A stretch of 64,000 nucleotides of DNA from an uncultured Chloroflexia bacterium (GTDB taxonomy: Bacteria > Chloroflexota > Limnocylindria > Limnocylindrales > CSP1-4). Position 1 is the stretch's first letter; each line of letters begins with the position of its first letter. The notes under the pieces were generated by a model. That model ran no database searches and was not told the origin of the DNA. It was given only the letters and a program-made list of their open reading frames with translations. A program made the translations under genes and the position numbers. Positions 12,257-47,330 of the stretch are shown piece after piece. The stretch lies in assembly GCA_963850035.1 (NCBI GenBank), contig CAWKJP010000005.1, positions 195,644-259,643 of the forward strand. The letters run 5' to 3'.

Positions 12257-12275
12257 ATGACGTTCTGTCATGACA
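12257..12275. promoter_or_regulatory. conserved palindromic motif, site 1 (ATGACG-ttc-TGTCATGACA)
   Basis: Read directly at these coordinates. The same composite palindrome recurs at 26146, 31595, 36886 and 47310. It contains a TTGACA-like hexamer (ATGACA), and CAGATT lies 17 nt downstream. Confidence 0.35.
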
Positions 12276-12335
12276 GGACACCCTCGCGCGCTCAGATTGC
12301 GCTCCAAGGGCGACCGGCAACGTCGCTCGTACTGC

Positions 12336-14018
12336 GTGCGCCCTCCCTGGGCGCCACGCAGCGGACTCGGGGTGAGGATTGAACGGCCAGGCCTGGACGT
12401 GGTGAAGCGACCCGCGGTCGCGATCCGCGACGAGTCCTCCGTGCGATTCCGGGGGTTGCTGGAGGCGGCCCCGGACGCCATGGTCGTGGTGGACCAGGAT
12501 GGGATGATCGCCCTGCTCAATCTGCAGGCGGAGAAGCAGTTCGGTTACCGACGTGATGAGCTGGTCGGCCAGCCCGTCACGAACATTATCCCGGTCGGGT
12601 TCGCCGAACAACTGATCGCGGACGACCTGCGCTCGGCCGCCGAAGCCCTGGCCCAGCAGATCGGCACCGGCATCGAGCTCGCCGGGCGGCGCAGGGACGG
12701 CAGCGAGTTCCCCATCGAGATCATGCTGAGCCCCCTCGAGAGCGCCGAGGGGATCCTCGTCATCGCGGCCATCCGCAACATCAGCGTGCGCAAGGAAGCC
12801 GAACACCAGCTGCTCCAGGCCCAGAAGCTCGAGTCGATCGGCAGGCTGGCCGGAGGGATCGCCCACGACTTCAACAACATGCTCTTCGTGATCAACGGGC
12901 ACGCCGAGATGCTCGACCAGGACCTGGTGCCGGCGCGACGGGCAGCGCTCGATCTCGACGAGGCGCTTCGCAACGTCCGGGCGATCCGGGAGGCTGGCGA
13001 GCGGGCCGCGACGCTGACGTCGCAGCTCCTCGCTTTCAGCCGCCAGCAGGTCATCCGTCCGACCGTGCTGGACCTCAACGCCGCCATCGAGGCCCTCGAG
13101 CCGATGATCCGCAATCTCATCGGCGAGAACATGCGGCTCGTCGCGAAGCCGGGTCGGGACGTCGGTCACATCCTCGCGGATGCGGGCCAGATCGACCAGA
13201 TCCTCGTCAACCTCGCCGTCAACGCCCGCGACGCGATGCCGGACGGCGGAACAGTGACGATCGAGACGGGGGACGTCCTCGTCGACGAGCCGTACGCGGT
13301 CGAGCGCTTTGGCCTTCGGCGAGGGCTGTACGTCCAGCTCGTGGTCAGCGACACCGGGATCGGGATGGACCATGCGACGAGGGAGCGCATCTTCGAACCC
13401 TTCTTCACGACGAAGCAGCTCGGAAAGGGCACCGGTCTCGGGCTCGCAACGGCCTATGGGATCGTCCACCAGGCCGGCGGCCACATCTGGGTGTACTCGG
13501 AGCCCGGCGTGGGTTCGGCGTTCAAGCTGTACTTTCCGCGGGTCGAGTCTCCCGTGTCGTCCGTGCCGCCGGACATCTCCGTCGCACCCGCGTCCGGAAC
13601 CGGCACGATCCTCGTGGTCGAGGATGAGCCCGTCGTGCGCGACATGACCACGCGGATGCTGATCCGGGCCGGGTATCACGTGATCCCGGTCGCTGACGGC
13701 GCCGACGCCATCGCGCAGCTCGCCCGGCTCGACGAGCCGATCGACGTGCTCGTCACCGACGTCATCATGCCGAACATGTCGGGCATTGAGCTCGCAGGCC
13801 TGGTGATGGATCGGGACCCGGCCGTGGGCGTCGTGATGCTCTCGGGGTATACCGCCGAAACCCTCAACCTCGAGCGCGTCACGACGCGCGGGGCGCTGTT
13901 CGTGCCGAAGCCCGTCACTTCTGGCCAGCTCGTGCTCGCGGTTCAGCGCGCCCGTGCCGTTCGAGGGGAAGCCAAGGGGCGCGACCAATCAGAGCCACGT
14001 GCGCGGTCGGGCTCGTGA
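12336..14018 (+). CDS. hybrid sensor histidine kinase (PAS - HisKA - HATPase - C-terminal receiver)
   Basis: It has a PAS domain (...MVVVDQDGMIALLN...), an H-box (LAGGIAHDFNNML), an ATPase G-boxes (DTGIGMD, GTGLGLA) and a receiver (ILVVEDEP...VLVTDVIMPNMSG). The start is uncertain. The ORF opens at ATG 12270, which lies inside the palindromic motif, and in-frame GTGs occur at 12336, 12372 and 12399. The stop overlaps the next gene's start (ATGA). Confidence 0.8.
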   Translation: MRPPWAPRSGLGVRIERPGLDVVKRPAVAIRDESSVRFRGLLEAAPDAMVVVDQDGMIALLNLQAEKQFGYRRDELVGQPVTNIIPVGFAEQLIADDLRSAAEALAQQIGTGIELAGRRRDGSEFPIEIMLSPLESAEGILVIAAIRNISVRKEAEHQLLQAQKLESIGRLAGGIAHDFNNMLFVINGHAEMLDQDLVPARRAALDLDEALRNVRAIREAGERAATLTSQLLAFSRQQVIRPTVLDLNAAIEALEPMIRNLIGENMRLVAKPGRDVGHILADAGQIDQILVNLAVNARDAMPDGGTVTIETGDVLVDEPYAVERFGLRRGLYVQLVVSDTGIGMDHATRERIFEPFFTTKQLGKGTGLGLATAYGIVHQAGGHIWVYSEPGVGSAFKLYFPRVESPVSSVPPDISVAPASGTGTILVVEDEPVVRDMTTRMLIRAGYHVIPVADGADAIAQLARLDEPIDVLVTDVIMPNMSGIELAGLVMDRDPAVGVVMLSGYTAETLNLERVTTRGALFVPKPVTSGQLVLAVQRARAVRGEAKGRDQSEPRARSGS

Positions 14019-16438
14019 TCGAAGAGCGGACCAACCCGAGCGCTCCGATCCTCGTCGTCGACGACGACGCGGCGACACGCGACCTGGTCGCGACACATCT
14101 TCGACGCGAAGGGTTCGAGACGCGCGAGGCGTCGGGCGGCGAGGCGGCGCTGCAGCTCATCGCGGACGAGGCGATCAGCCTGGTGATCCTCGACATGCGG
14201 ATGCCGGGCATGTCGGGAACCGATGTCGTCCGCGCCCTTCGGGAGGGTTCCATCACCTCCACCCTGCCGATCATGGTCCTGACCGGGAACACGGACGAGT
14301 ACTCCCTGGCCGCGAGCCTCGGCGTCGGTGCCGACGACTACCTGACGAAGCCCATCCCGCTCGACGAGCTCACGGCGCGGGTTCGCGCCCACCTGCGCGG
14401 CGCGCGGGTCGCGGCAGCGCAGGCGAAGCGAGGGAGCGAGGAGCAATATCGCGCGCTCGTGGAGCAGTCCGCAGATGGCATCCTCGTGTCGGACCCGACC
14501 GGACGCTACGTCGAGGCCAATGCGGCCGTCTGCCGGATGCTCGGCTACCAGCGCGACGAGCTCCTTGCCATGTCCTCGCCGGGCCTGAGCGCCGACGACG
14601 ATCCGCTGAGCCCAGAGGAGATGGACAAGCGGCTGGCGGAGACTCAGGCGGGGACGCCCATCATCGTCGAGCGGCGCTACCGTCGGAAGGATGGGACGAG
14701 CATGCCCGCCGAGGTCAGCTTCTCCCAGCTGCCCGACGGTCGCCTCCAGCGCAACATCCGCGACATCACGGCGCGCCTTGCCGCCGACGCGGAGCGCACC
14801 CGGCTCGCCTCGGCGGTCCAGCAGACTGCCGATGCGATCTGGATGAACGACATGAACGGCATCATCACGTACGTGAACCCGGCGTTCACCCACGCGTACG
14901 GGTACGAACGCTCCGAGATCGTCGGTCTGTACGGGTCGATCCTTGATGGCGGCCACCAGGACCAGGCGTTCTTCGCCACGATCTGGGAATCGGTGCGTGC
15001 GGGGCGGACGTGGTCCGGCACGATCGTCAACCGGCGCAAGGACGGCACGCCAATCGAAGTCGAATCGGTGATCTCGGCGATTCACGAGGCCGATGGCCGG
15101 TTCGCGGGCTATGTGCAGGCCGACCGGGACGTCACGCATGAGCGACGGCTCGAACGCGCCCTCGAGCGCGACGCCCGCGAGCGCGAGACGGTCGAGGCGT
15201 CGCTCGCGCAGATCGACCCGGATGCCTCGGCCGAGGAGATCGCGGCGGCCGCGTGCGCGGTCATCAACGAGCTTCCCGGCGTCGACTCCACGGTGGCGGC
15301 CCTCCTGGACGAGGGCATGGGAGCGGTCCTCGCCGTCGCCGGGCAGCTGGCCCTCGTCCTCACTCCCGCGATGATGCTACCGGCGCCGAGGGTCGCGTAT
15401 CTGCGCGAGCGGGCCTCGCGCGGCCCGTGGTTCGAGGCCTGGAATCCAGGCCCGGACGGCGGGGCGTGGGCGGAGCAGGCCACGACGACCGGACTCCAGG
15501 CGATTGCGTACGCGCCGCTGCGCAGCCAGCGTGGCGTGATCGGCGTCGTCGGCATCGGGAGCCACGACCCGGCGACCGCCTCGTCGCTCGTCGACCACAT
15601 GCCGGCCCTGGCGGCGTTCGCGTCCATTCTCGGGGCGCTGCTCGTGCCCAAGCTCGATGACCGTCGACGCGAGGGGGATCAGCGCGCACGAATCCAGGCC
15701 GTCATCGCGGACGCCGCGTTCACGCCGTACTTCCAGCCGATCGTCGACCTCCATAGCGGCGCCGTCGTCGGGTACGAGGCGCTCACCCGCTTCACGGATG
15801 GCGTGCCGCCCGATGCCCGGTTCGGCGCGGCGGTCCTGGCCGGCCTTGGCATCGACCTCGAGCTCGCCACGCTCCGCGCGGCGATCACGGCCGCGTCCGC
15901 CGTCCTGCCCCCCGTCGCATACCTGAGCCTCAACGCATCGCCCGGACTCATCACGTCGGGCGCGCTTCGCACCCTCCTCGGCGGCGTGGAGCGGCCGGTC
16001 ATCCTCGAGATCACCGAGCACGTCGCGATCACGGACTACGCCGCGCTCCGGGCCGAGCTGGCTGCCCTGGGGCCGACCGTCCGCCTGGCCGTGGACGACG
16101 CCGGCGCCGGCTACGCGAGCTTCCGGCACATCCTGGAGCTCGCCCCCGACGTCGTGAAGCTTGACATCGGGCTCATCCGCGGGATCGACGGCGACCCCGG
16201 CCGACAGGCGCTCCTCGCCGGAATGGCCTTCTTCGCGGTCAAGCGCAGGATCCGCCTTGTTGCCGAGGGGATCGAGACCGGCGCCGAGCTCGAGGTGCTC
16301 CGCTCCCTCGCGATCCCCTTCGGACAGGGCTACCTCCTGGGCCGGCCCCAGGACGGACGCGGGCCGGGGCCCTGGCCCGTCGCGGTCGTGCTCGAGTCGA
16401 CGCCGAAGAAGACCCGAAGGTCTCGCCGGTCACGCTGA
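14015..16438 (+). CDS. response-regulator receiver - PAS - PAS - GAF-like - EAL protein (c-di-GMP phosphodiesterase)
   Basis: 807 aa. It has a REC domain (ILVVDDDAATRDL...LVILDMRMPGMSG), two PAS domains and an EAL domain with catalytic signatures (YEALTRF, EITEH, DDAGAGYAS, KLD, EGIETG, QGY). Confidence 0.85.
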   Translation: MIEERTNPSAPILVVDDDAATRDLVATHLRREGFETREASGGEAALQLIADEAISLVILDMRMPGMSGTDVVRALREGSITSTLPIMVLTGNTDEYSLAASLGVGADDYLTKPIPLDELTARVRAHLRGARVAAAQAKRGSEEQYRALVEQSADGILVSDPTGRYVEANAAVCRMLGYQRDELLAMSSPGLSADDDPLSPEEMDKRLAETQAGTPIIVERRYRRKDGTSMPAEVSFSQLPDGRLQRNIRDITARLAADAERTRLASAVQQTADAIWMNDMNGIITYVNPAFTHAYGYERSEIVGLYGSILDGGHQDQAFFATIWESVRAGRTWSGTIVNRRKDGTPIEVESVISAIHEADGRFAGYVQADRDVTHERRLERALERDARERETVEASLAQIDPDASAEEIAAAACAVINELPGVDSTVAALLDEGMGAVLAVAGQLALVLTPAMMLPAPRVAYLRERASRGPWFEAWNPGPDGGAWAEQATTTGLQAIAYAPLRSQRGVIGVVGIGSHDPATASSLVDHMPALAAFASILGALLVPKLDDRRREGDQRARIQAVIADAAFTPYFQPIVDLHSGAVVGYEALTRFTDGVPPDARFGAAVLAGLGIDLELATLRAAITAASAVLPPVAYLSLNASPGLITSGALRTLLGGVERPVILEITEHVAITDYAALRAELAALGPTVRLAVDDAGAGYASFRHILELAPDVVKLDIGLIRGIDGDPGRQALLAGMAFFAVKRRIRLVAEGIETGAELEVLRSLAIPFGQGYLLGRPQDGRGPGPWPVAVVLESTPKKTRRSRRSR

Positions 16439-26097: not shown

Positions 26098-26145
26098 GGC
26101 GCGGCGAGTATACGGGCGCGGCCGGGGCGCCTCTGCGTGCCCCAC

Positions 26146-26163
26146 ATGACACCTCGTCATGAC
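26146..26163. promoter_or_regulatory. conserved palindromic motif, site 2 (ATGACA-cct-CGTCATGAC)
   Basis: Read directly. It lies in the divergent region between ahcY (-) and the multi-PAS hybrid kinase (+). Confidence 0.35.
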
Positions 26164-26363
26164 TGGAGGGCGCGGACAGGACACAGTGACGATGGACGAG
26201 CGTGTCCTCCCGGCACCCGCGAGCCGCGCGGGGGTCGGGCGACCGACCCGTCGCGCGCTACATGGGTGAGCACAGATGGCCGAAGACCTGGACGTCACGA
26301 CCCAGCCGAACGTGCTCGCAGGCACGCGGCATCTCGCGCGACGCTCACGAAGGTCCCGGCCAC

Positions 26364-29300
26364 ATGGTGACGCCGGCCGACCGTGCCCCGACCGGCACTG
26401 GGGGCGATGACACGCCCCATCAGGCCGCCGTGGGAGAAGACAGGGCCGCGCGGGCGCTCGAATGGCCCGCGCTCCTGGCTGCCCTCATCGCCATCGGCAT
26501 CGGGCTCGTGGTGCTCCTCGGGTGGGCGACGGGCCCCGGTATCCTCCGCACGTTTCTGCCTGGCGCGCCTCCCATGAAGGTGGGGGCGGCCATCCTGTTC
26601 CTGCTGCTCGGCGTGGCCCTGACCCTGCGAGTGGCAGGTCGGAATCCTCGCGTCGCAGACGCCCTCGCGATCGTCGTGGCCGTCGTCGCGCTTGCCACCC
26701 TGCTCGAATACGCCGCCGGCATCGATCTCGGCTTCGATCGGCTCTTTGTGGCGGACGTGATCGGGCCCGGCGCACCATTCCCTGGGCGCATGGCCGTGAG
26801 CACAGCGGTCGGGCTCGTCGCTGGTAGCCTCACGGTCGTCCTGCTCGGGCGTAGCTGGCTCGGCTGGCGCGTGCGGACGATCCTCGCGGTCGTCGTCGGA
26901 CTGATCGGCGGACTGGGGGTCCTCGGCTACCTGTACGACGCGACCGCGCTCGTCGCCCTCGGGTCGGCGAGTCAGATCGCGCCCCCGACTGCGCTCGGCT
27001 TCGTTATCTTCGCGGCCGGCCTTGTTGCCGCCGATCAGGAGCACGGGCTCATGCCGGTGATCCGCGATCGGGGACTCGCGGGCCAGCTGACGCGTCGGAT
27101 CACGCTGACCATCGCCGTGGTGCTGCCCCTCGCCGGCTGGCTGGACGTGCGGCTCGTTGGCGCCGGCCTGGTGGGCGACGGGCTCGCGATGGCCGCGATC
27201 GTCGGCTTCGAGGTCCTCGTGCTCGGGATCGCCGGAATCTGGACCTCGGGCGGCGTCCTCCGGCTCGAGCGCGCGCGCACGGTCGCCGAGGGTGAGCGCG
27301 ACCAGCAGCTGGAGGTCTCCGAGCGCCTCGTCTTTGCCATCGACAGGTCGACTGACGGGATCGTCATCACCGACCCCGACCGGCGCATCGTCTATGCCAA
27401 CACGGCCCTCGGCAGGACCATGGGCCGTGAACCGGCGGAGCTCGTCGGGATGCCTGTCACACAGGTCACGGCCACCGCCGTGGGCGCCGCCGTCGACGCG
27501 GCCGGCGATGGGGAATGGTCCGGCGAGATCGATCGCCTGGGGCCGGACGGGACGCCGCTTCGCCTCGAGGTGAGGATCACGCCGATCCGTGGTCCGCAGG
27601 GTGAGGTCTCGGCCTGGCTCGGCATGAACCGGGACATCACGGCCGCGCACCAGGCCCGCATGGCCCTCGAGTCATCGGAGCGGCACTTGCGCACCGCGCT
27701 CGACACGATGCTCGACGGCGTCACCATCCAGACGGCAGTTCGCGACGGGACGGGCAGGATCGTCGACTTCCGGGTCGACTACGCCAACTCCGCGATCGGC
27801 CTGATCAGCGGCACGGCGGCCAGCCTCCAGGCGGGGCGCACCCTGCTCGATCTGTTCCCCGCCCACCGGACGAACGGGCTCTTCGATGCGTATGTCCGGG
27901 TGGTCGAGACCGGCGTCGCGTTCCAATCCGAGGCGTTCCACTACGTCGACCCCGACGCGGAGGCCGGACCGCTCGACCAGGTGCTCGACCTGCGGGCCGC
28001 CAGGATCGGCGACGGCTACGTCCTCTCGGTCCGCGACGTGACCGGGCACCGCAAGGCCGAGCAGGTGCTCGTGGAGCAGCGGGCTCTTCTCGCCGCGCTG
28101 ATGGACAACACCCCGGACCACATCTACTTCAAGGACGCCGAGAGCCGCTTCACGATGATCAGCAGGGCCCTGGCGACCTCGTTCGGCCTTGGCGAAGCGT
28201 CACAGGCGGTTGGCAAGGCCGATCTCGACTTCTTCACGGACGAACACGCCCGCATGGCGCTCGAGGACGAGCGCCAGATCATGCGCTCCGGCGTCCCACT
28301 CGTGGGTCTCGAGGAGCGGGAGACACGGCTCGACGGCCGCGAGACCTGGGTCTCGACCACCAAGCTGCCCCGCCGGGATCGCGACGGGTCGATCGTGGGT
28401 ACCTTCGGGATCTCGCGCGACATCACCACGCGCAAGCAGGCCGAGACGGCGCTCGCCGAGACGAACCGGCGCCTGGAGGAAGCCATCACCCGGGCCACGG
28501 AGATGACCCTGCGGGCGGAGACGGCCAACGCCGCCAAGAGCGAGTTCCTGGCCAACATGAGCCACGAGATCCGGACGCCGATGAACGGGGTCATCGGGAT
28601 GATCGGGCTCCTGCTGGACACGGAGCTCGAGGCGGACCAGCGACACTACGCCGAGACCGTCCGGGCGAGCGGCGAAGCCCTCCTCGACCTCCTGAACGAC
28701 ATCCTCGACTTCTCGAAGATCGAGGCCGGTCAGGTCGAGCTGGAGACGCTCGACTTCGACCTGCGCACCCTCCTGGACGACTTCGCGGTCATGCCGGCCA
28801 TGCGCGCCCACGAGAAGGGGCTGGAGTTCATCTGCGCCACGGCTCCGGACGTACCCGCCCGTCTTGCCGGCGATCCGGGACGACTCCGCCAGGTGCTCCT
28901 CAACCTGACAGGCAACGCCATGAAGTTCACGCACCAGGGCGAGGTCTCGGTGCGGGCAGGCCTCCTGGCCGAGACCGGGGCCGACGTCGTCATCCGCTTC
29001 TCGGTCAAGGACACCGGGATCGGGATCGCACCCGAGAAGCAGGCGCGAATGTTCGAGAAGTTCACCCAGGCGGACGCGTCGACCACCCGTCGATACGGTG
29101 GCACGGGTCTTGGCCTCGCCATCTCCAAGCGGCTCGTGGAGCTGATGGGCGGGGAGATTGGCATCGCGAGCGAGGAGGGTCGCGGGTCGGAGTTCTGGTT
29201 CACGGTGCGCCTCGCGAAGCAGGCCGAATCGGACCGCCCGGCGATCCCGGTGGCGGAGCTGCGCGGCGCCCACATCCTCGTGGTGGACGACAACGCCACG

Positions 29301-30251
29301 AATCGCGAGGTCCTGTCTGCCCAGCTCCGTGCCTGGGACGCGCGCCCGCAGGAGGTGCCGGACGGCCCCTCGGCGCTCCTCGCGCTTGCACAGGCGCGGG
29401 ACGCGGGCGATCGCTTCGTCGCGGCGATCCTCGACATGCAGATGCCGGACATGGACGGGACGGACGTCGCCCGTGCCATCAAGGCCGACGAGACGCTGAA
29501 GGACACGCGCCTTGTGCTGCTGACCTCCCTCGGCAAGCGAGGCGATGCGCGGGAGATGGAGGAGATCGGCTTCTCCGCGTACCTGATGAAGCCTGCGCGA
29601 CAGTCGGACCTGTTCGACAGCCTTTCGGCCGTCCTGGCCGGCTCGGAGGTCAGTCGCCGCTCGCGACATATCGTCACCCGCCACGCGGTCCGGGAGATGC
29701 GCCGCGGCGCGGTCCGCATCCTGCTGGCCGAGGACAACCTCACCAACCAGCAGGTCGCGCTGGGAATCCTGCGAAAGCTGGGCCTGCGTGCGGACGCCGT
29801 CGGAGACGGCGCCGAGGCGGTCCGGGCGCTCGAGACGATCCCGTACGACCTCGTGCTCATGGACGTGCAGATGCCGGAGATGGACGGCCTGGAGGCCACC
29901 GCCAGGATCCGCGATCCGATGTCCGCGGTCCTGCACCACCACGTCCCGATCGTCGCGATGACCGCCCACGCCATGCAGGGTGACCGAGACCGCTGCCTGG
30001 AAGCCGGGATGGACGACTACGTCACCAAGCCCATCTCGCCCGACGCGCTGGCGGCGGCACTCGATCGGTGGCTGCCCCGGGAGGAGCCCGCCCCCACTGC
30101 CCATCCGGACGCGGCACGCCCGTCCGAGGTGCGCACCGCCGTGGTCGGTGCCGAGGCATCGAATGCCGGCCCGGACGCGACCGGGGCTGGATCCCGACTC
30201 GACGGCGCCCGTCTTCGACGCGGCGGGGATGATGGACCGGCTCATGGGTGA
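26364..30251 (+). CDS. multi-PAS hybrid sensor histidine kinase with two C-terminal receiver domains
   Basis: It has an N-terminal polytopic membrane domain, at least four PAS domains, an H-box ([17 protein letters not shown]), an ATPase ([18 protein letters not shown]) and two REC domains ([10 protein letters not shown]...[11 protein letters not shown]; [10 protein letters not shown]...[12 protein letters not shown]). The ORF opens at 26202. I placed the start at ATG 26364 ([11 protein letters not shown]), which has GAAGG about 10 nt upstream. An ATG at 26262 is also possible. Confidence 0.85.
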
Positions 30252-30570
30252 CCAGGAGCTCGCCGGGATCATCGTGCATGGCTTCCTGGAGGACTTGCCG
30301 CGATTGATCGAGGCGCTCAGGAACTCCCTCGCCGTCGGTGACGCGCCGGGCGCGATCCGCGGGGCCCACACCATCCGCGGCGCGTCGGCCACCGTCGGCG
30401 GGGAGGCGCTGCGCGCGGTGGCGTGGGAGATGGAGAAGGCGGCCACCGCAGGCGAATTCGGCGCCGTGAGCGCCCGTCTCCCGGAGCTCGAGCTCGAGCT
30501 CGGCCGACTCCGCGAGGCGATGGGCGCCTTCATCGACGCACTCCCGCGTGTCGCGGAAGCCCCGGCATGA
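30226..30570 (+). CDS. Hpt (histidine phosphotransfer) domain, either a standalone ~114-aa protein or the frameshifted C-terminus of the hybrid kinase
   Basis: It carries the Hpt signature (GAHTIRGASATVGGEALRAVAWEME). An ATG at 30226 overlaps the kinase stop at 30249-30251. Conserved Hpt-like residues (PVFDAAGMM) extend upstream in this frame, which suggests an original fusion. Confidence 0.5.
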   Translation, partial: GMMDRLMGDQELAGIIVHGFLEDLPRLIEALRNSLAVGDAPGAIRGAHTIRGASATVGGEALRAVAWEMEKAATAGEFGAVSARLPELELELGRLREAMGAFIDALPRVAEAPA

Positions 30571-30574
30571 CCCC

Positions 30575-31498
30575 ATGAGGATCCTCATCGCGGACGACGA
30601 CCTCACCTCGCGCCTGGTCCTCGCGGGCGTGCTGAAGAAGTGGGGCCACGAGGTGGTGGCCACGGTGGACGGCGGGCAGGCATGGGAGGCGATGCAGCGC
30701 CCGGACGCGCCCGCGGTCGCGATCCTCGACTGGATGATGCCCGAGCTCTCCGGGGTGGAGGTGTGCGGCCGGGTCCGGGGCCTTCACTCCGACCAGCCGC
30801 CCTACCTCATCCTCCTGACCGCGAAGGGTGAGAAGTCCGACATCGTCGCGGGACTGGAGGCGGGCGCGGACGACTACCTGTCCAAGCCGTTCGACCCGGG
30901 AGAGCTGCGTGCGCGCGTCGACGTGGGCCGGCGAATCATCGAGCTGCAGGCGCGCCTGCTTGAGACGCGCAACGCGCTCGAGCACGAAGCGACGCACGAT
31001 CCGCTCACCGGCGCGATCAACCGGCGCGCGTTCTCGGATGTCCTGGCTCGCGCCCTCTCGGAGGAACGGCGGCATCACGACGGGCTGGCCCTCGGGATCT
31101 GCGACGTCGACAGCTTCAAGACGATCAACGACACGCACGGGCACCAGGTCGGGGACGAAGTGCTCGTCGAGCTCGTCCGTCGGATCACGGGCAAGCTGCG
31201 CGGACACGACGTCCTGAGCCGCCACGGCGGCGACGAGTTCGTGGTGCTCGTGGGGCATGTCGGGGAGACGGACGTGGTCACGCTCTTCGAGCGCATGCGG
31301 GCCGCGGTCGAGGAACATCCGATCCCCACGAAGGTCGGGGACGTGTCCGTCACGCTGAGCTTCGGCGTCAGCAGATGGACGGAAGGCCAGACCGAGGACG
31401 CGCTCGTCGCTGCCGCCGACGTTGCCCTGTACCGGGCCAAGAGCGCGGGACGCAATCGCGTTGCCCTTGCTGGCGACCCGGCGGCGTCCGCCACGTAG
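30575..31498 (+). CDS. response regulator REC-GGDEF (PleD-like diguanylate cyclase)
   Basis: It starts 4 nt after the Hpt stop. It has a REC domain (MRILIADDDLTSRLVL...ILDWMMPELSG) and a GGDEF domain with an intact active site (RHGGDEFVVLV). Confidence 0.85.
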   Translation: MRILIADDDLTSRLVLAGVLKKWGHEVVATVDGGQAWEAMQRPDAPAVAILDWMMPELSGVEVCGRVRGLHSDQPPYLILLTAKGEKSDIVAGLEAGADDYLSKPFDPGELRARVDVGRRIIELQARLLETRNALEHEATHDPLTGAINRRAFSDVLARALSEERRHHDGLALGICDVDSFKTINDTHGHQVGDEVLVELVRRITGKLRGHDVLSRHGGDEFVVLVGHVGETDVVTLFERMRAAVEEHPIPTKVGDVSVTLSFGVSRWTEGQTEDALVAAADVALYRAKSAGRNRVALAGDPAASAT

Positions 31499-31594: not shown

Positions 31595-31614
31595 GTGACG
31601 ATCCGTCATGACAC
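31595..31614. promoter_or_regulatory. conserved palindromic motif, site 3 (GTGACG-atc-CGTCATGACAC)
   Basis: Read directly. ATGACA is followed 16 nt later by TAGGTT (31630-31635), a plausible -35/-10 pair. Confidence 0.35.
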
Positions 31615-34600
31615 GCGCGCTCGGTCTGTTAGGTTCAACCATGGATTGGCCTGCCCGTCCTGCTATCGCCGCCCGCCCGGGTGGCCATCGCGAGTGGCTC
31701 CTCCAGGGTGTCGCATGCGTGAGAATCGGGGCAAGGCGGGCAGAGCTGCCGCCTCCCCATCCGTCGGCCTCCGACGAGACGGCGCCCGCGACAGCTCCCC
31801 TGGCCGGGCGGGAGCGCCTGCGCCTGGCGCCCGTTCGACGGGAGCACCGCCCAGGGCGCGCCGGTCGCGCGAGCGGGCGGAGGCCGAGCTTCGCGAGAGC
31901 GACATCCGATATCGATCGGTGCTCGCCGCGCTCGAGGAAGGGGTCGTGCTCCACGGCCCGGACGGCGCAATCACCGAGCACAACGCGGCCGCCGGAACCA
32001 TTCTCGGCCTCGCGAGCGACGAGCTGATCGGCCGAATGCCGGCGGATTCGCGGTGGCAGGCGATCCACGAGGATGGATCGCCGTTTGCAGGCGACACGCA
32101 CCCGGCGGTGCGCACCCTGGCCACCGGCGAGCCATGCTCCGGCGTCGTCATGGGGATCCGGAAGCCTGACGGCTCGCTCACCTGGATCCAGGTCAACTCG
32201 CGGCCCATCCTCCAGGAAGGCGAGACGCACCCATCCGCCGTGGTCGTCTCGTTCTTCGACATCACCGAGCGCGAGGAGCGCTCCCGCCAGCGGGATCACC
32301 TCCAATCTGCGATCGAGGAGTCGTTCGATGGGATGGTCATCATCGGCCGCGATCTGCGGATCGTCTATGCCAACGCGACGGCCGCGCAGGGCGTGGGACA
32401 CGTCGCTGCCGACCTCGTGGGACGACCCATCACGGAGGTCGCGGGAGCCGTCCTGGATCCAGCCCAGGTCGCCGAAATGATGGAAACGGTCCTGGACGAG
32501 AGGCAATGGACCGGGGAGGTCGATCGTCAAGGACCGGAAGGGACGCCGCGTCGCGTCGAGGTCAGGATCACCCCGACCCGCGACGAACGCGGCACGATCT
32601 CGTCGTGGATCGGGGTGATCCGCGATGTCACGGCGGAGCATCGGGGCCGGGCGGCGCTCGAGTCGTCAGAGCATCGCCTTCGGATCGCGCTCGACACGAT
32701 GCTCGACGGCGTCGCGATCCAGTCGGCCGTGCGCGACGACACGGGACGGATCGTCGATTTTCGGGTCGACTATGTGAACGCAGCGATCGGCGTGGTCAGC
32801 CGAATGGCGGGCATTCCCCGGGTCGGACATAGCCTGCTCGAGCTGCTCCCCGCTCATCGGACCAATGGACTCTTCCAGAGCTACGTCGCCATGGTGGAGA
32901 CCGGTGTCCCATTCTTCGCAGACGGCTTCCACTACGTGGATCCCGACGCGGCGGGCGGACCCCTCGATCAGATCGTCGACCTGCGCGCTGCCAGGATGGG
33001 CGAGGGCTACGTGCTGTCGGTGCGCGATATCAGCGGGCGGCACCGGGCCGAGCGCGAGATGCGGCGCCTGTCGAGGGCAATCGAGCAGTCGGCAGAGTCG
33101 GTCATGATCACGGACGCGACCGGTGCGATCGAGTACGTGAACCCCGCGTTCGAGCAGGTCAGCGGATACACGCGCGACGAGGTCCTCGGCCGGAACCCGC
33201 GGCTCCTCAAGAGCGGCGTCCAGGATTCCGCCTTCTACGCCGCGATGTGGGACGCCCTCACGAGCGGGCAGACATTCGTGGCAGACATGACGAACCGGCG
33301 CAAGAACGGGGAGATCTACCAGGAGGAGAGCGTCGTCTCGCCGATCCTCGACGAGACCGGGACGATCACGAGCTACGTGGCGGTGAAGCGTGACGTCACC
33401 CGCGAACGCGCCTCGGAGGACGTCCGCGAGAGCCTCGCCCGGGAGCGTGCCCTCATTGCGACGGCCCTCTCCGGGCTGCACGTCCTGCCGACCCCGGCCG
33501 CGACGGCCGCGGCGATCTGCCGGCAGATCGTGGGCCTGGCCGGCGTCGCGAGCGCTTCCCTCGCCTACTTCACCCTCGAGGGTCCGGCTCTCGCGCTTGC
33601 CTTCGTGCGGGCCGACGGCGTGCCCGTGCGACTGCGGCGGCTGCCATTCCAGCGCAGCAGGGTCCTGCGCGAACGGGCCGAGGAGGGTCCGTGGGTGGAG
33701 ACCTGGGTCCACCGGCCCTGGCACCCGTACGACCGGCTCCACACCGACCTGGGCACCGCGGCCCTCGCCTACGCGCCGGTCCGCAGCGGCGGCACGCTCA
33801 TCGGCCTCCTGACAGTCACCTCGGATAGTGACGACGCGATCGAGCGGCTCACCGAGACCCTGCCGGGCCTGCTCGAGTTCGCTGGCTTCGCGGGCGCGCT
33901 CGTCGGCCGGGCGGTGGCCGACCTGACCGAGCTTGGCGCCACCCGCGAACGGATCGCGCAGATCATCAAGAGCGCGGCCTTCCGGCCGGTCTTCCAGCCG
34001 GTTGTCGAGCTCGCGACCGGCGCCAGGGTCGGCTACGAGGCCCTCACCCGCTTTGCCGACGGGACGGCCCCCGACCTCGTCTTCGCCGACGCGCGTGCCG
34101 CCGGGCTCGAGGCGGAGCTCGAGCTCGCCACCCTTGCGGGCGCGATCGCAGCGGCCACGGGGCTGCCGGGCGGTGCCTGGCTCAGCCTCAACGCGTCGCC
34201 CAACCTCGTGGGCGCGAGCTCGCGCCTCGCGGGATTGGTGCGCAGGGCAGACCGGCCGATCGTGCTCGAGGTGACCGAGCATGTGGCTGTCGCGGACTAC
34301 GCGGCCCTGCGCGCCGCGCTCGGCAGACTCCGCCCCAAGGTACGGGTCGCCATCGACGACGCGGGCTCGGGGATCGCCAACTTCAGCCACATCGTCGAGC
34401 TGCGGCCGGCCTTCGTGAAGCTCGACATCGGGCTCGTCCGCGGGATCGACACGGACCTGACCCGACAGGCCCTCATGGTGGGCCTGCTCCATTTCGCGAG
34501 CGAGTCATCCAGCCTGACGATCGCCGAGGGCGTCGAGACCCCGGAGGAGCTCGCGATGCTGCAGGCGCTCCACGTGCCGCTCGCCCAGGGCTACCTGCTG

Positions 34601-34804
34601 GGCCGCCCCGCGCCCGTCGCCGAGTGGGCGGAGACGCGGGGCATCACCGGGCCGGGACACGTGCCGCGGAACGGCAGGGGCGCGAGGCGCGCGACGGGCG
34701 CGCCTGCGCGGGTCGCCGCAACAACCGGACGCCAGGAGATCGCGAGCCCACGAGCCGGTGATACCACCGATCGCGGGGGCGACGATCCGAACGCCGCGGG
34801 TTGA
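31595..34804 (+). CDS. multi-PAS - GAF-like - EAL c-di-GMP phosphodiesterase
   Basis: At least four PAS domains are followed by an EAL domain (YEALTRF, EVTEH, DDAGSGIANFSH, KLD, EGVETP, QGY). The true start is uncertain. The first ~100 codons are Arg/Pro-rich low-complexity sequence that overlaps the motif, and the first PAS domain begins near 31900. Confidence 0.8.
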   Translation: MTIRHDTRARSVRFNHGLACPSCYRRPPGWPSRVAPPGCRMRENRGKAGRAAASPSVGLRRDGARDSSPGRAGAPAPGARSTGAPPRARRSRERAEAELRESDIRYRSVLAALEEGVVLHGPDGAITEHNAAAGTILGLASDELIGRMPADSRWQAIHEDGSPFAGDTHPAVRTLATGEPCSGVVMGIRKPDGSLTWIQVNSRPILQEGETHPSAVVVSFFDITEREERSRQRDHLQSAIEESFDGMVIIGRDLRIVYANATAAQGVGHVAADLVGRPITEVAGAVLDPAQVAEMMETVLDERQWTGEVDRQGPEGTPRRVEVRITPTRDERGTISSWIGVIRDVTAEHRGRAALESSEHRLRIALDTMLDGVAIQSAVRDDTGRIVDFRVDYVNAAIGVVSRMAGIPRVGHSLLELLPAHRTNGLFQSYVAMVETGVPFFADGFHYVDPDAAGGPLDQIVDLRAARMGEGYVLSVRDISGRHRAEREMRRLSRAIEQSAESVMITDATGAIEYVNPAFEQVSGYTRDEVLGRNPRLLKSGVQDSAFYAAMWDALTSGQTFVADMTNRRKNGEIYQEESVVSPILDETGTITSYVAVKRDVTRERASEDVRESLARERALIATALSGLHVLPTPAATAAAICRQIVGLAGVASASLAYFTLEGPALALAFVRADGVPVRLRRLPFQRSRVLRERAEEGPWVETWVHRPWHPYDRLHTDLGTAALAYAPVRSGGTLIGLLTVTSDSDDAIERLTETLPGLLEFAGFAGALVGRAVADLTELGATRERIAQIIKSAAFRPVFQPVVELATGARVGYEALTRFADGTAPDLVFADARAAGLEAELELATLAGAIAAATGLPGGAWLSLNASPNLVGASSRLAGLVRRADRPIVLEVTEHVAVADYAALRAALGRLRPKVRVAIDDAGSGIANFSHIVELRPAFVKLDIGLVRGIDTDLTRQALMVGLLHFASESSSLTIAEGVETPEELAMLQALHVPLAQGYLLGRPAPVAEWAETRGITGPGHVPRNGRGARRATGAPARVAATTGRQEIASPRAGDTTDRGGDDPNAAG

Positions 34805-36885: not shown

Positions 36886-36905
36886 ATGACGCGGCGTCAT
36901 GACAC
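36886..36905. promoter_or_regulatory. conserved palindromic motif, site 4 (ATGACG-cgg-CGTCATGACAC)
   Basis: Read directly. It lies 115 nt upstream of the small CxxC ORF at 37021. Confidence 0.35.
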
Positions 36906-37020
36906 GGGTGATTGGAGACCGCACACTCCGGCGATCCCGCTCGGGCGAGCGGGAGTTGCCGTGCCCAAGTCCTGGCGGCCCGCCAGCGCGGCCACCCGAA
37001 CCGTCTCGAGGCTCCCCGCG

Positions 37021-37203
37021 ATGTTGACCGACCATCCCCTGGCCCAGTCCGCCTCCAGCGTTCCCGTCCGTTGCTCTGACTGCCTGCTGCCGTTCGACGC
37101 CCGCGACGCCCATCGCCAGATGCGCACACTCGATGGCCCCCTCGCCCTCTGCAGCGACTGCACCTGGCGCCTCGAGCACCCGGGAGACGCCCGGCGCGCC
37201 TGA
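37021..37203 (+). CDS. small putative zinc-ribbon protein (CxxC-x28-CxxC), 60 aa
   Basis: MLTDHPLAQSASSVPVRCSDCLLPFDARDAHRQMRTLDGPLALCSDCTWRLEHPGDARRA. It is in-frame within the shadow ORF 35458..37203. I see no clear ribosome-binding site. Confidence 0.3.
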   Translation: MLTDHPLAQSASSVPVRCSDCLLPFDARDAHRQMRTLDGPLALCSDCTWRLEHPGDARRA

Positions 37204-37334
37204 CCCCCGGCCCCCTGGCGGCACGTCGTGGGCGCGCCGTCCCCGATGAGCACGCCTCGGGACTTCGGTCCCGTGCGCGCGCGACGTCCGGCCCTGACGC
37301 AGCGAGCCGCCGGCACGGACGATCGGAGGCGGAG

Positions 37335-38204
37335 GTGTCATCCATGCTTCGCGCGCTCGCTCGCCTGGCCCTGGGGGCTGCGGCCGTGGCAGGCGGCCTC
37401 GCCGGGCTGCTCGTCGCGACCGGCCGGCGCTTCAGCCGGACCGTCGCCGCCGATCGCCACGGCCTCCTGGACCGGCCCCGCCCGCCGCATCCGCCGGTCG
37501 TCACCGAGGAGATGCTCGCCGGCCTCCCCGGCCCGGCGCAGCGCTACCTGCGCTACGCCGGCGTCATCGGGCGGCCGCTCGTCGACACGGTCCGCGTGCG
37601 ACAGGCAGGCCGCATGCGACCGGCGCCGAACGGGCTCTCGCTGCCGATCGTCGCCGAGCAGTGGTACTCGGTGGAGCCGCCCGGGTTCATCTGGGACGCC
37701 ACGGTGCCCGTCGCCGGCATCCCGCTGGTCCGGGGTCGCGACGGCTACGTCGACGGCCGCGGCATGATGACGATCAAGGGTGGGTCGCTGATTTCGATCG
37801 TGGACGCGAGCGGGCCCGAGATGAACCAGGCGTCCCTCCTGCGCCACCTGAGCGAGATGCCGTGGTTCCCCAGCGCGTTCCTCCGTGACCGGATCTCGTG
37901 GGAGGCGATCGACGACACGTCGGTCCGGGTCTCCATCGCGGACGGCGACCTGCGGGCCACCGGCATCCTGGAGATCGATCCGGACGGCCGCCTCGTGGAA
38001 TTCCGGTCCGAGCGCCACGCCATGGTGGGCCGGGGCTTCGAGCTCCGCCCCTGGTCGGCGCCCACCTACGCATACGGCGAGTTCGAGGGCCTCCGGCTGC
38101 CCGTGCGCGGCGCCGCGGTCTGGACGCTGCCCGACGGCACGAAGCTGCCGTACATCGAGATCGAGCTCCTCGACGTGACATCGGATCCGCCGCTCCCGGG
38201 CTGA
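37335..38204 (+). CDS. hypothetical protein with an N-terminal hydrophobic anchor
   Basis: 289 aa with a non-repetitive, protein-like composition (MSSMLRALARLALGAAAVAGGLAGLLVA...). I recognise no family. Confidence 0.5.
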   Translation: MSSMLRALARLALGAAAVAGGLAGLLVATGRRFSRTVAADRHGLLDRPRPPHPPVVTEEMLAGLPGPAQRYLRYAGVIGRPLVDTVRVRQAGRMRPAPNGLSLPIVAEQWYSVEPPGFIWDATVPVAGIPLVRGRDGYVDGRGMMTIKGGSLISIVDASGPEMNQASLLRHLSEMPWFPSAFLRDRISWEAIDDTSVRVSIADGDLRATGILEIDPDGRLVEFRSERHAMVGRGFELRPWSAPTYAYGEFEGLRLPVRGAAVWTLPDGTKLPYIEIELLDVTSDPPLPG

Positions 38205-41562: not shown

Positions 41563-41602
41563 CCCCGGGTTGCCAGGCGGACGAGCGGAGCAGGTTCCTG
41601 CG

Positions 41603-42544: not shown

Positions 42545-42585
42545 GCCCGCCGGGGCGAGCAGGGTCGCGGCGGGCGTCGGGCCCG

Positions 42586-44373: not shown

Positions 44374-44832
44374 TCAGGCGAGCGAGACGATCCGCAGCCC
44401 GAAGGCGCCGCTCGGCGCGGTCACGAGCACCCGGTCCCCGACCCGGCCGCCCATGAGCGCGCGTCCGACCGGCGAGGTGCTGCTGATCCGGCCGGCCGCC
44501 GGAGCAGCCTCGTGGCTGCCGACGATCGTGTACGTCTCCTCGCCGTTGTCGTCCTCGACCGTCACCGTCGTGCCCAGGCTGACGTGACTCGTGGACGCTC
44601 CAACGATCTCCACGGCGTCGCGGAGCAGCACGGTCAGCTCGTTGACCCGTCCTTCGAGGATCGACTGCTCCTTGCGCGCCGTCTCGTACTCCGCGTTCTC
44701 GCGGAGGTCGCCGAGCTCGCGGGCCGCGGTGATCCGGGCGACGACGACGGGCCGCTCGACGGTGGTGAGCTGCTCGAGCTCGGCACGAACGCTGACGATG
44801 CCGCTCGAGGAAAGGTAGACGGTGCTGCTCAT
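44374..44832 (-). CDS. greA: transcription elongation factor GreA
   Basis: 152 aa with conserved GreA blocks (ARELGDLRENAEYETARKEQSILEGRVNELTVLLRDAVEI ... TVEDDNGEETYTIVGSHEA). Confidence 0.85.
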   Translation of the reverse strand: MSSTVYLSSSGIVSVRAELEQLTTVERPVVVARITAARELGDLRENAEYETARKEQSILEGRVNELTVLLRDAVEIVGASTSHVSLGTTVTVEDDNGEETYTIVGSHEAAPAAGRISSTSPVGRALMGGRVGDRVLVTAPSGAFGLRIVSLA

Positions 44833-44972: not shown

Positions 44973-45449
44973 CTACGCCTTCCGCTCCAGCAGCTCCTCG
45001 GCGGCGAAGAGGTTGATCCCGCTGTCGATCAGGTCCAGCAGCCCGCGCATCGTGCGCTCCTCCTCGACCTGCTCCTCGATGAACCATTGCAGGAACTGCA
45101 GGCTGCGGTGATCCCCTGCCGCCGTCGCCGCGCTGGCGAGCACGTCGAACTGGCCGGTCACGCGAAGCTCGCTCTCGAGGGCGGCCCGGACGGCCTCCCT
45201 CGCGGAGGCGTACCGGGTCGTGCCCGGTCCGATTGCCGGCAGGTCGAAGGGGATGCCGTTGTCGATGAGGAACGAGATGATCTTTGCGGCGTGCTGGGCT
45301 TCCTCGACGGACTGGGCACGGAACACTCCGGCCCATCTCGACAGGCTCTGCCCCTCGAAGTAGAGCGAGATCCCGAAGTACGCCTGGTGGGCATTGAGCT
45401 CGTGTCCGACCTGGGCGATGAGCAGGTCCCGGACCTCGTCGGTGATCAT
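44973..45449 (-). CDS. ferritin (non-haem, BfrB-like)
   Basis: 158 aa starting at an internal ATG (MITDEVRDLLIAQVGHELNAHQAYFGISLYFEG...EEAQHA...FLQWFIEEQVEEE) with ferroxidase-centre ligands. Confidence 0.8.
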   Translation of the reverse strand: MITDEVRDLLIAQVGHELNAHQAYFGISLYFEGQSLSRWAGVFRAQSVEEAQHAAKIISFLIDNGIPFDLPAIGPGTTRYASAREAVRAALESELRVTGQFDVLASAATAAGDHRSLQFLQWFIEEQVEEERTMRGLLDLIDSGINLFAAEELLERKA

Positions 45450-45601: not shown

Positions 45602-46789
45602 ATGCCAGCCACGTCGCGCCGGCGGGCGCTCGTCCTCATCTGCGCCGTCGCAGTCGCGGTCGCCACCAATTACACGATCCAGGGCCCTGTCCTCGGGCTG
45701 ATCCGCGCCGAGTTCGGGCTGTCGTCAGCGGATGCGGGCGGCCTCGCCACGGCGTTCTTCGCCGGCTCCGCGGCCACGATGCTCGCCGGAGGCGCGATCG
45801 CGGACCGGATCGGGACGCGGCCCGCGGTGACCCTGGGGTTCCTGCTGGTGGCCGTCGGCAACCTCGGCACCGGTCTCCTCGCGCCAAGCTTCCCGGCCCT
45901 GCTGGCATGGCGCGTCCTCGGCGGCCTCGGCGGGGGCTTCGGGTTCGCGGCCGGGGCCGCCTATACGCGCTCGATCTTCGATGACCGTGGGCGCCACCTG
46001 GCCCAGGGGCTCTACGGTGCGGCGTTCCTCCTCGGGTCGGGGATCACGCTGGCCTACATCCCGGTCCTCGCCGGCCCGTCCGGCAACTGGCGGCTCGCCT
46101 TCACGCTGTCCGCGGCCGCCGTGACGGTGGTCTGGGTGGCCTGGACGCTGCTCGCCCCGGCGGAGGCCCGGACGCCGGCAGGCGGCGGTGCGCTGGACGC
46201 GCTGGTCGTCGCGCTGCGCGAGCGCAACACGTGGCTGCTGGCCCTCTGCCACATGTGCGGTTTCGGAATGGCGATCGTCGTCAGCACCTGGGTCACGCTC
46301 TACCTCGAGGAGGCGTTCGGCCTGTCGATCGGGGCGGCCGGGCTGCTCGGCTCACTGACGCTGGTGCTCGGCATCGTCTCCCGCGCCTCGGGCGGGGCCG
46401 TCCTCGAGGCGGGGCTGGCACCGATCCGCGCGGTCCGGATCGGCCTGGCGCTGGCCGTGACTGGCCTGTCGATGATCGCGCTTGCGCCGTCGCTGCCGAT
46501 CGCCGTGGCCGGCCTCGCGATCACCGGCCTGGGCGTCGGTCTTCCGTACGCGGCCGTGTTCAACGGAGCCGCGGCGAGCGTCCCCGCAAGTGCCGCATCC
46601 GCCCAGGCGGTCGTGGGCTGGGGTGGGCTTCTCACCGCGATCTTCGGAACGCCGCTCGTCGGCACCCTGCTCGACGCGACCGGGAGCTTCACCGCGGGCT
46701 TCCTCGTCCTCGCCGCGATCGTCGTGACCGTCCTGCTCCTGAGCTCGCTGGTCCGCCCGTTCGACCTCGCGGCGGCCGACTCGGTGTGA
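45602..46789 (+). CDS. MFS transporter
   Basis: 395 aa with about 12 TM helices and a typical MFS composition. Confidence 0.75.
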   Translation: MPATSRRRALVLICAVAVAVATNYTIQGPVLGLIRAEFGLSSADAGGLATAFFAGSAATMLAGGAIADRIGTRPAVTLGFLLVAVGNLGTGLLAPSFPALLAWRVLGGLGGGFGFAAGAAYTRSIFDDRGRHLAQGLYGAAFLLGSGITLAYIPVLAGPSGNWRLAFTLSAAAVTVVWVAWTLLAPAEARTPAGGGALDALVVALRERNTWLLALCHMCGFGMAIVVSTWVTLYLEEAFGLSIGAAGLLGSLTLVLGIVSRASGGAVLEAGLAPIRAVRIGLALAVTGLSMIALAPSLPIAVAGLAITGLGVGLPYAAVFNGAAASVPASAASAQAVVGWGGLLTAIFGTPLVGTLLDATGSFTAGFLVLAAIVVTVLLLSSLVRPFDLAAADSV

Positions 46790-47309
46790 TCAGGCGGGCA
46801 GGGCGCCGCGGCGGACCGGATGATCGACGACCCGTCGGCCGCCCGGTCGTCGGTCCGCCTGGCGCTCGGGCCCGATCCATCGCTCGCCGACGCCCCGATC
46901 GGATGGTTGCGGGGCGTTCTCGCACGACGCGGCGCACCCGCCGCAGAACTCCTCGATCAGCGCCGCCGCGAGCTGATAGCGCCGTGCGCGCGCCAGCAGG
47001 CGTCGCGCCATGAAGGGATCGAGCGTGGCGGTGCCCCGAGCGGCCGCACGGGCCTCCTCGCGGTAGTCGCGGCCGATCGTTCGGGGTCCCGCGCGGCGGA
47101 GCTGATGAGCGTCGACAGGGCGACCTCACCGGACGTCCGTCCGGGATCGCGGTCGTCCCATCCCGCAGCGATCGTCGAACCGAGGACCTGGAGAGCGCAG
47201 CCAGCCATCGAAGCTTCTCCCGGGCCGGCGTGCACTCCGCGGGCCGCATCGACGGCCCGCCGTCCTGGCGCTCCAGGCGCACGTCGACGACGTCGGCATT
47301 CTTCGCGCT

Positions 47310-47330
47310 CGACGCGGCGTCGTCATGACG
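47310..47330. promoter_or_regulatory. conserved palindromic motif, site 5 (variant: GACG-cgg-CGTC-GTCATGACG)
   Basis: Read directly. It shares GACGCGGCGTC with site 4 and the GTCATGAC core with all sites. It lies in an apparently gene-free ~650 bp region. Confidence 0.3.

Follow-up and report, generated by a model that had tools for sequence, protein, structure and literature searches.

The closest described counterparts of the promoter element reported here belong to OmpR/PhoB-family regulators. For PhoB, the distance from its box to the core promoter must be strictly kept (PMC10294691). E. coli CusR binds a palindrome, AAAATGACAAnnTTGTCATTTT, between divergent operons (PMC11195947), and HP1043 of Helicobacter pylori, an atypical orphan OmpR/PhoB regulator, activates from TTTAAG-5bp-CTTAAA, located at −26 to −42 (PMC8345958). 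We analyzed a 64,000-nucleotide stretch of DNA from an uncultured Chloroflexia bacterium (Limnocylindria; Limnocylindrales; contig CAWKJP010000005.1, positions 195,644 to 259,643), hereafter the window, in which a 19-base palindrome recurs as the upstream part of a promoter module. Soils and freshwater harbor abundant Limnocylindria (Ellin6529-type Chloroflexota), for which there is essentially no genetics.

The module shares some features with each of these systems. Like the CusR box (and those of HprR and PcoR), the palindrome has ATGAC half-sites; however, the copper box ATGACAAnnTTGTCAT has 6 bp between ATGAC and GTCAT, whereas all copies of the module have 5 bp. The half-site of the pho box, CTGTCAT, is similar to the C(C/T)GTCAT of the module, but pho boxes are direct repeats bound head-to-tail and the module is an inverted repeat. 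The inverted-repeat-like site of HP1043, modelled as bound head-to-head, also overlaps its promoters (PMC8345958); its half-site sequence and the phylum are, however, unrelated, and it lies 6-7 bp closer to the transcription start. Class-II CRP/FNR promoters likewise carry a dimer site near −41 that overlaps the −35 element, but they differ in protein family and in site length, which is even (14-16 or 22 bp) rather than an odd 15 bp, and no CRP/FNR gene is linked to the module.

Exact matches to the 8-mer GTCATGAC were found at positions 12267, 26156, 31605, 36896, and 47322 of the window, in agreement with the preliminary description of this DNA. Five copies compare with 0.90 expected, and none of 100 dinucleotide-preserving shuffles of the window (G+C = 72%) reached five. 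Zero-mismatch matches to RTGACRNNNYGTCATGAC start at 12257, 26146, 31595, and 36886. When one mismatch was allowed, the fifth copy, present as described, turned out to be a closer fit when read on the minus strand (47339->47321, ATTACGTGCCGTCATGACG, 1 mismatch), where a −10-like hexamer of its own, AAGAAT, follows, and a sixth copy appeared at 48669-48687 (ATGACGACGCGTAATGACA, 1 mismatch). Thus, the five sites of the preliminary description are all real, but there are six in total; the last carries the 8-mer GTAATGAC and had been missed for that reason. With a position weight matrix built only from sites of other genomes, the window sites being left out, exactly these six sites and the reverse reading of site 6 were recovered, at 25-30 bits for the upstream part, and zero sites were found in 30 shuffled windows. 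We conclude that the repeated 19-base palindrome is real.

The six sites share one layout: the palindrome ATGACG-N3-CGTCAT, GAC(a), a spacer of 16-17 nt, and a −10-like cAnAnT. A TANNNT-like hexamer had been noted at only two sites. Its spacing of 16-17 nt was correct, but a hexamer whose second base is A and whose sixth is T lies 16-17 nt past ATGACN at all six (CAGATT, CACAGT, TAGGTT, CACACT, AAGAAT, and CACAAT for sites 1-6). Alignment of the six sites revealed no likeness beyond the motif except for this hexamer, so the flanks are indeed unrelated. According to Pfam-supported gene models, all six sites are intergenic.

Genomes, one per species, were scanned with the pattern ATGACRNNNYGTCATGACA, which fits only 2 of the 6 window sites. 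The scan returned at least 120 loci. Among the matches listed, about 42 are from Chloroflexota (Limnocylindrales, 'uncultured Chloroflexia' MAGs [metagenome-assembled genomes], and one Thermomicrobiales, with G+C of 66-74%); the calculated chance expectation at Chloroflexota composition is ~1e-3 matches per genome. The other matches among those listed are spread over many phyla, as expected by chance. Hence, the motif is strongly over-represented in Limnocylindria-like Chloroflexota MAGs. The nearest named relatives of the window AhcY (79-81% identity) come from 'Candidatus Limnocylindrales' and 'Chloroflexota bacterium' MAGs. Exact 19-mer matches also occur in Kitasatospora (L086 ~5058 and L119 ~3987) and Streptomyces, two of them sharing conserved flanks; these actinomycete matches lack the −10 signal and are probably an unrelated conserved site or due to chance. 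The box of the actinomycete regulator BldD, TNAC-N5-GTNA, fits TGAC-N5-GTCA, and the gene content of the window first looked actinobacterial; this candidate was dropped because the AhcY relatives and the scan pointed to Chloroflexota. No BldD-like gene was noticed near any site, BldD homologues not being searched for.

The 44 scan-selected Chloroflexota sites and 37 further copies from the same 8-kb loci gave a set of 81 sites. In the scan-selected sites, three positions that the scan does not constrain, lying exactly 17 nt after the motif, were conserved: A38 (32/44), A40 (26/44), and T42 (37/44). The signal was even stronger in copies that had not been selected by the scan (30/34, 31/34, and 32/34, respectively). 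All three bases were present jointly in 50 of the 81 Chloroflexota sites vs 1 of 79 sites from other phyla retrieved by the same scan, and the spacer was 17 nt long in 73/81. Within the −10 hexamer, position 2 (A) and position 6 (T) are near-invariant in the Chloroflexota sites. The hexamers resembling −35 and −10 elements lie upstream of genes and point at them, with a spacing in the range of sigma-70-type promoters (16-18 bp); however, the T-12 typical of housekeeping promoters is mostly missing, the first −10 position (37) being occupied by C in 50/72 sites and by T in 3/72. An enrichment of GACAC (WhiA-like) between the −35 and −10 elements was accounted for by the −10 consensus (g/a)CACACT. 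Of 78 unique sites, 74 are intergenic, vs 27% expected (P ~2e-37), and called start codons lie a median of 170 nt from the predicted transcription start.

GAC is present on at least one flank in 78/79 palindromes (on one side only in 75 and on both sides in 3), and the GAC-bearing flank is the one that carries the −10 hexamer. Given this match, the fixed spacer, and the conserved −10 hexamer, we therefore conclude that the element is one directional unit, ATGACG-nnC-CGTCAT-GAC(a/g)-N17-(r)cAcAcT, with an information content of about 30 bits. If the −10 hexamer is placed at −12 to −7, the palindrome occupies −48 to −34, with its center at −41, and shares two bases with the −35 hexamer ATGACa, the overlap with a −35 element that the preliminary description had proposed. 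The palindrome is a 6-3-6 inverted repeat (15 bp) with the centers of the ATGAC half-sites 10 bp apart. There is no 10-11 bp tandem direct repeat in the site, the only direct repeat of ATGAC having a 13-bp period. A dimeric transcription factor, already invoked in the preliminary description, is the natural reader of such a palindrome. Copies with GAC on both sides in L153 (3296-3318), L151 (1253-1275), and L188 (4880-4902) read TGTCATGACGnnnCGTCATGACA or GTCATGACG-N3-CGTCATGAC and apparently represent bidirectional promoters built on one shared palindrome.

When all genes of the motif-selected loci were clustered, the largest cluster, with members in 16 loci, was formed by a protein of ~260 amino acids. 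In each of the six members tested, a strong Trans_reg_C match (E 1e-22 to 1e-24) was accompanied by a weak Response_reg match (1e-7 to 1e-10), which places the protein in the OmpR/PhoB family. Typically, its gene and a YGGT-GlsB-CsbD operon are divergent, and 60-140 nt separate the palindrome from the start of the gene; in another arrangement, the motif directly follows the stop codon of the gene. A protein-only search yielded well over 120 cluster representatives with 76-87% identity, a very high conservation. At four of four independent loci picked by the protein alone (L176/177, L178, L179, and L180/181), a full motif promoter was found within ~300 nt of the gene, and the targets at these loci differ: YGGT-like plus GlsB, an ABC-transporter binding protein, or DUF8253. 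No HisKA/HATPase gene adjoins the gene in L176-L181, and no adjoining kinase was recognized in the maps of the 16 motif-selected loci, where only some neighbors are annotated. In an alignment with KdpE and M. tuberculosis PhoP from the PDB, the receiver retains the acceptor Asp and Thr, the invariant Lys is replaced by Met or Val, and one acidic pocket residue is replaced by His. In L180 and L181, an AAA_16-TPR-GerE regulator lies directly upstream of this gene. L181 also encodes, two genes away (8655-12212, minus strand), a protein of zinc-ribbon/cyclase/AAA_16/TPR architecture; large proteins combining a double zinc ribbon, an adenylate/guanylate cyclase domain, AAA_16, and TPR are likewise encoded in the window (4493-8059, minus strand, and 3-1679).

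No NCBIfam equivalog cut-off is reached by this candidate regulator; the best match is PhoB, with 134 vs 296 bits. Like PhoB, an OmpR/PhoB-family winged-helix protein that activates from a position at and just upstream of the −35 region with strict spacing (PMC10294691), it is predicted to activate from such a position; in contrast to PhoB, it has no adjoining kinase and no invariant receiver lysine. CusR provides a parallel for the gene order, since its site is flanked by the regulator gene on one side and by a divergent target operon on the other, just as the palindrome lies between the candidate regulator and the YGGT operon. However, CusR has one or two targets and the module many, and the candidate is below the heavy-metal cut-offs (TIGR01387, 104 vs 279 bits; NF007346, 70 vs 420). 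The sole hints of a link to copper are a cupredoxin gene in the window and DUF1775 genes in L150/L151. A parallel in protein type is HP1043 (HsrA), also an orphan, which has a degenerate receiver and activates multiple genes (PMC8345958). HP1043 controls housekeeping genes. The receiver of the candidate has lost the Lys and one acidic residue but retains the acceptor Asp and the Thr.

Fifty genes downstream of the module were compared with Pfam. The most frequent families were YGGT (9 genes) and Transgly_assoc, i.e., GlsB/YeaQ/YmgE (7), followed by PAS (4), Receiver (3), and EAL, Ice_binding, Zn_peptidase, and DUF1775 (2 each). Single cases were G6PD, a luciferase-like oxidoreductase, solute-binding and permease proteins, CsbD, an FMN reductase, a CDGSH protein, and a GAF-GGDEF protein. 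The target set looks like a membrane/general-stress set with signaling extras rather than a cyclic di-GMP (c-di-GMP) regulon. In the preliminary description, the motif was taken to define a local c-di-GMP/phosphorelay regulon. The window is a hot spot, and PAS/GGDEF/EAL genes do recur as targets (L116 and L141); but the same module is present in dozens of Limnocylindria-like MAGs, mostly ahead of small membrane/stress genes of the YGGT, GlsB/YeaQ/YmgE, and CsbD types, which leaves no c-di-GMP specificity. The scan of related genomes that had been suggested as a check bore out placement in intergenic regions and toward genes, but signaling genes proved to be only recurrent extras.

A functional role is supported by two footprints. 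In the upstream footprint of the YGGT orthologue from 11 genomes, conservation is confined to the motif, the −10 hexamer, a block in the 5′ untranslated region (5′ UTR), and the ribosome-binding site. For the PAS-EAL gene downstream of window site 3, the orthologue in L116 (63% identity over 702 amino acids) has two motif copies upstream, and the motif is kept there although the surrounding upstream DNA can no longer be aligned with the window. The 5′ UTR block of the YGGT-family gene, CATTGGCCGGAGnGTCGnCCGGCAGTGGTCGCCAGnCCCCGCTTCCCCGGATGCC, is ~60 nt long and occurs in at least nine genomes downstream of the motif promoter (L074 ~2085-2170, minus strand; L085, L135, L153, L168, L176, and L128), in L128 also ahead of a GlsB gene. 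It matches no Rfam family, and RNAalifold gave only two short hairpins with one compensatory pair.

An earlier estimate of hundreds of sites per genome was withdrawn: Mb-sized contigs among the matches listed carry about one strict match each, and 88 kb of AhcY-anchored loci have zero copies. The regulon probably comprises tens of promoters per genome; the 6 sites within the 64 kb of the window make it a local hot spot.

We consider it reasonably likely that the module is a class-II/PhoB-like promoter at which a dimer of the candidate OmpR/PhoB regulator activates the genes of a Limnocylindria-like regulon. Each site would then be the upstream half of a promoter, in which the 15-bp inverted repeat ATGACG-N3-CGTCAT, ~41 bp upstream of the predicted start, overlaps the −35-like ATGAC(a/g) by 2 bp, with the (r)cAcAcT −10 hexamer 17 bp further on. 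The regulator dimer would occupy the two ATGAC half-sites head-to-head and, from −41, would aid RNA polymerase on a promoter with an ATGACa −35 element and a weak −10 element that lacks the first T. The regulon would be common to Limnocylindria-like Chloroflexota, with YGGT, GlsB/YeaQ/YmgE, and CsbD at its core. Its members in the source genome would be two PAS-kinase/EAL operons, a PAS-EAL gene, a DUF6544 operon, and two orphan transcripts.

Several observations weigh against this reading. Most OmpR/PhoB regulators bind direct, not inverted, repeats, and a −10 element that starts with T in so few sites might point to a dedicated sigma factor. The window does not encode the candidate regulator, whose presence in the source genome is assumed; its cognate status rests on gene linkage, and it could be a regulon member or a neighbor rather than the master. 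Orthologues of the site 1 kinase with 69-76% identity (L186, L187, and L220) lack the motif because they lie inside operons; relatives of this kinase in 80 metagenome loci also have no motif upstream. The AhcY-anchored loci of relatives that are free of the motif number five, and in the closest retrievable relative, L055 (84% AhcY identity), site 2 is not kept, there being only a bare GTCATGAC and no synteny. Membership of the signaling genes in the regulon is therefore not generally conserved.

A bolder form of the activator reading, which we regard as doubtful, is that the orphan regulator is a phosphorylation-independent master activator that runs the general-stress/envelope programme of Limnocylindria by way of a single, very information-rich module and has, in some genomes, captured entire PAS-kinase/c-di-GMP blocks, with the two gene-less promoters of the window producing unannotated small RNAs or small proteins that belong to the regulon.

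Alternatively, the palindrome may be a repressor operator, with a dimer of OmpR or other type occluding the −35 element until a stress signal arrives, as with LexA, HrcA, or DdrO. The overlap with the −35 hexamer, the stress-like regulon, and the fact that the ATGACA-17-cAnAnT core scores as sigma-70-like unaided are all compatible with such an operator. Yet repressor operators are usually variable in position, whereas here the distance to the −10 hexamer is 17 nt in 73/81 sites and GAC is fused to the palindrome in 78/79. In addition, the −10 hexamer is weak, with no T at the first position, and OmpR/PhoB proteins at such a position are typically activators. We therefore think repression possible but clearly less probable than activation.

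A dedicated alternative sigma factor, for example a general-stress one, is a somewhat weaker contender and, in our view, unlikely. It would read an extended −35 element, CGTCATGACa, together with the −10 CACACT, and the upstream arm would stem from present or past bidirectionality. The invariant GAC, the strict 17-nt spacer, and the preference for C over T at the first −10 base (50/72 vs 3/72) would all be expected of such a factor; the targets resemble sigma-B/sigma-S regulons (GlsB/YeaQ/YmgE, CsbD, and G6PD), and perfectly symmetric bidirectional copies exist in L151, L153, and L188. However, in the 75 one-directional promoters, invariance of the distal arm (−48 to −43) equals that of the proximal arm, and no sigma factor is known that reads so far upstream. 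Moreover, no sigma gene recurs near the sites, whereas the winged-helix regulator does.

The model of the preliminary description, a CRP-like factor governing a local c-di-GMP/phosphorelay regulon, fares worse still. The symmetry center near −41 is the classic class-II position, three of the six window targets are PAS/EAL/GGDEF operons, and cyclase-domain proteins are encoded in the window. CRP/FNR consensus sites are, however, of even length (TGTGA-N6-TCACA or TTGAT-N4-ATCAA, with TGA-N6-TCA cores), and the half-sites here are TGA-N7-TCA (15 bp, odd) in all copies. The motif is lineage-wide and most of its targets are non-signaling, and the regulator gene that recurs beside the sites encodes an OmpR-type, not a cyclic-nucleotide-binding, protein. 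We consider this model very improbable. Finally, although the element is short, highly conserved, and present in many copies, one of them upstream of an IS110-type transposase gene, a relic of a dispersed repeat (a miniature inverted-repeat transposable element, a repetitive extragenic palindrome, or an insertion sequence end) or an artefact of chance or composition has a negligible probability, since the flanks are unrelated both within the window and between orthologous loci, conservation is limited to 19 bp and three −10 positions, placement is directional and intergenic, shuffles give 0-0.9 copies, and no terminal-repeat pairs are present; the preliminary description had reached the same judgment. 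The transposase gene in question (L087 2689-3732, minus strand) is the first called gene ~490 nt downstream of the motif promoter.

We return to the individual sites of the window, for which the transcription starts given are inferred positions. Site 1 (12257..12275, plus strand) consists of the palindrome ATGACGttcTGTCAT followed by GACA, with the −35-like ATGACA at 12270-12275. After a 17-nt spacer comes CAGATT (12293..12298, plus strand), a position conserved in the 81 related sites, with a predicted start at ~12305. The target operon (12372..16438, plus strand; from Pfam and the gene model) encodes a PAS-HisKA-HATPase-receiver hybrid kinase, which starts approximately near 12372 and extends to 14018, and then a receiver-PAS-PAS-GAF-EAL protein (14015-16438). 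Site 2 (26146..26164, plus strand; ATGACAcctCGTCAT plus GACT) is located in the gap between ahcY, which is on the minus strand with its real start near 26043, and a multi-PAS hybrid histidine kinase with two receivers. Its −10-like CACAGT (26182..26187, plus strand) predicts a start at ~26194. The target region defined by Pfam (26202..31498, plus strand) has an uncertain start codon, GTG at 26202 or ATG at 26364; the kinase extends to 30251 and is followed by a receiver-GGDEF protein (30548-31498).

Site 3 (31595..31613, plus strand; GTGACGatcCGTCAT plus GACA) is followed after 16 nt by TAGGTT (31630..31635, plus strand), with a predicted start at ~31642. Its target is the multi-PAS EAL protein gene (31715..34804, plus strand; Pfam), which starts at the ATG at 31715 or later; the true start is downstream of the motif and not at the GTG at 31595 inside it. 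Site 4 (36886..36904, plus strand) is a perfect consensus, ATGACGcggCGTCATGACA, with CACACT at 36922..36927 (plus strand) and a predicted start at ~36934. The downstream region (36958..38204, plus strand) contains a possible small CxxC...CxxC open reading frame (ORF), from 36958 or 37021 to 37203, with a high G+C content at third codon positions and a neutral codon score, and past it a DUF6544/DUF6920 gene (37335-38204, plus strand).

The cupredoxin gene (47448-48497, minus strand) lies between sites 5 and 6. Site 5 (47321..47339, minus strand; ATTACGtgcCGTCAT plus GACG), just past the stop codon of this gene, has AAGAAT at 47298..47303 (minus strand) and a predicted start at ~47291. It points into a gap of ~500 nt (46790-47290, minus strand) without a recognizable gene. 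Site 6 (48669..48687, plus strand; ATGACGacgCGTAAT plus GACA) is upstream of and divergent from the cupredoxin gene and has CACAAT at 48705..48710 (plus strand), with a predicted start at ~48717; its −35/−10 pair was also picked by a generic sigma-70 scan. It points into 48717-48938 (~220 nt, plus strand), ahead of a convergent HAD-hydrolase gene. Both sites have the full promoter architecture, and each is convergent with an adjoining gene. No recognizable gene, Pfam match, or intrinsic terminator was found in the stretches that follow sites 5 and 6. Thus, the statement that the motif lies at the 5′ end of a signaling gene or small ORF holds for sites 1-4 but not for these two. The small CxxC ORF of site 4 and the ORFs after sites 5 and 6 have no Pfam match and no homologue in the fetched loci; codon scores of the ORFs after sites 4, 5, and 6 are neutral or negative. 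The products of sites 5 and 6 may be small RNAs, antisense transcripts, or small proteins that lack annotation.

Long ORFs open at an ATG or GTG inside the motif, and the first Pfam domains of their products lie far downstream; as the preliminary description had supposed, these starts are ORF-calling artefacts. The public AhcY model P0001 (428 amino acids; 24859-26145, minus strand) has a GTG start that borders the palindrome and precedes the beginning of its homologues and of the Pfam domain by ~34 codons; this start is probably also an artefact caused by the motif. No Rfam family was found in the window or in nine related loci, and comparison with a plasmid collection yielded only weak matches at the level of domains. 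Elsewhere in the window, a Fur-family regulator gene (19078-19725, minus strand) is divergent from, or overlaps the start of, a NicO nickel/cobalt transporter gene (19676-20761, plus strand), probably a Nur/Fur-type metal-uptake pair unrelated to the motif. On the minus strand, a GreA gene (44374-44832) adjoins a ferritin/Dps-like gene (44973-45449), between a luciferase-like oxidoreductase cluster and an MFS gene; no motif copy is near.

In the searchable literature, GTCATGAC and CGTCATGAC occur only as thyroid-hormone response elements and primers, with no bacterial report, consistent with the earlier claim that the element is undescribed. On transcription regulation in Limnocylindria, nothing was found there, one review mentioning Limnocylindria together with 'promoter'. 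The regulon is thus undescribed but of a mechanistically ordinary kind, a response-regulator-dependent class-II-type promoter, with two less common features, the inverted repeat and the atypical orphan receiver.

A sharply defined module, a named candidate regulator, and a core target set together provide an uncultured class with a regulon open to direct testing. The module can serve for promoter annotation and start-codon correction in MAGs, where several public gene models start inside the motif, and may help to interpret soil metatranscriptomes. The candidate regulator would be the third reader of inverted repeats in the OmpR/PhoB family, after the CusR-type regulators and HP1043, and would be informative about the change from head-to-tail to head-to-head binding, and back, within this family. 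Should it indeed be a master activator of the general-stress/envelope programme, it would fill the role played elsewhere by sigma-B, sigma-S, or EcfG, and second-messenger signaling would be tied to that programme in some genomes.

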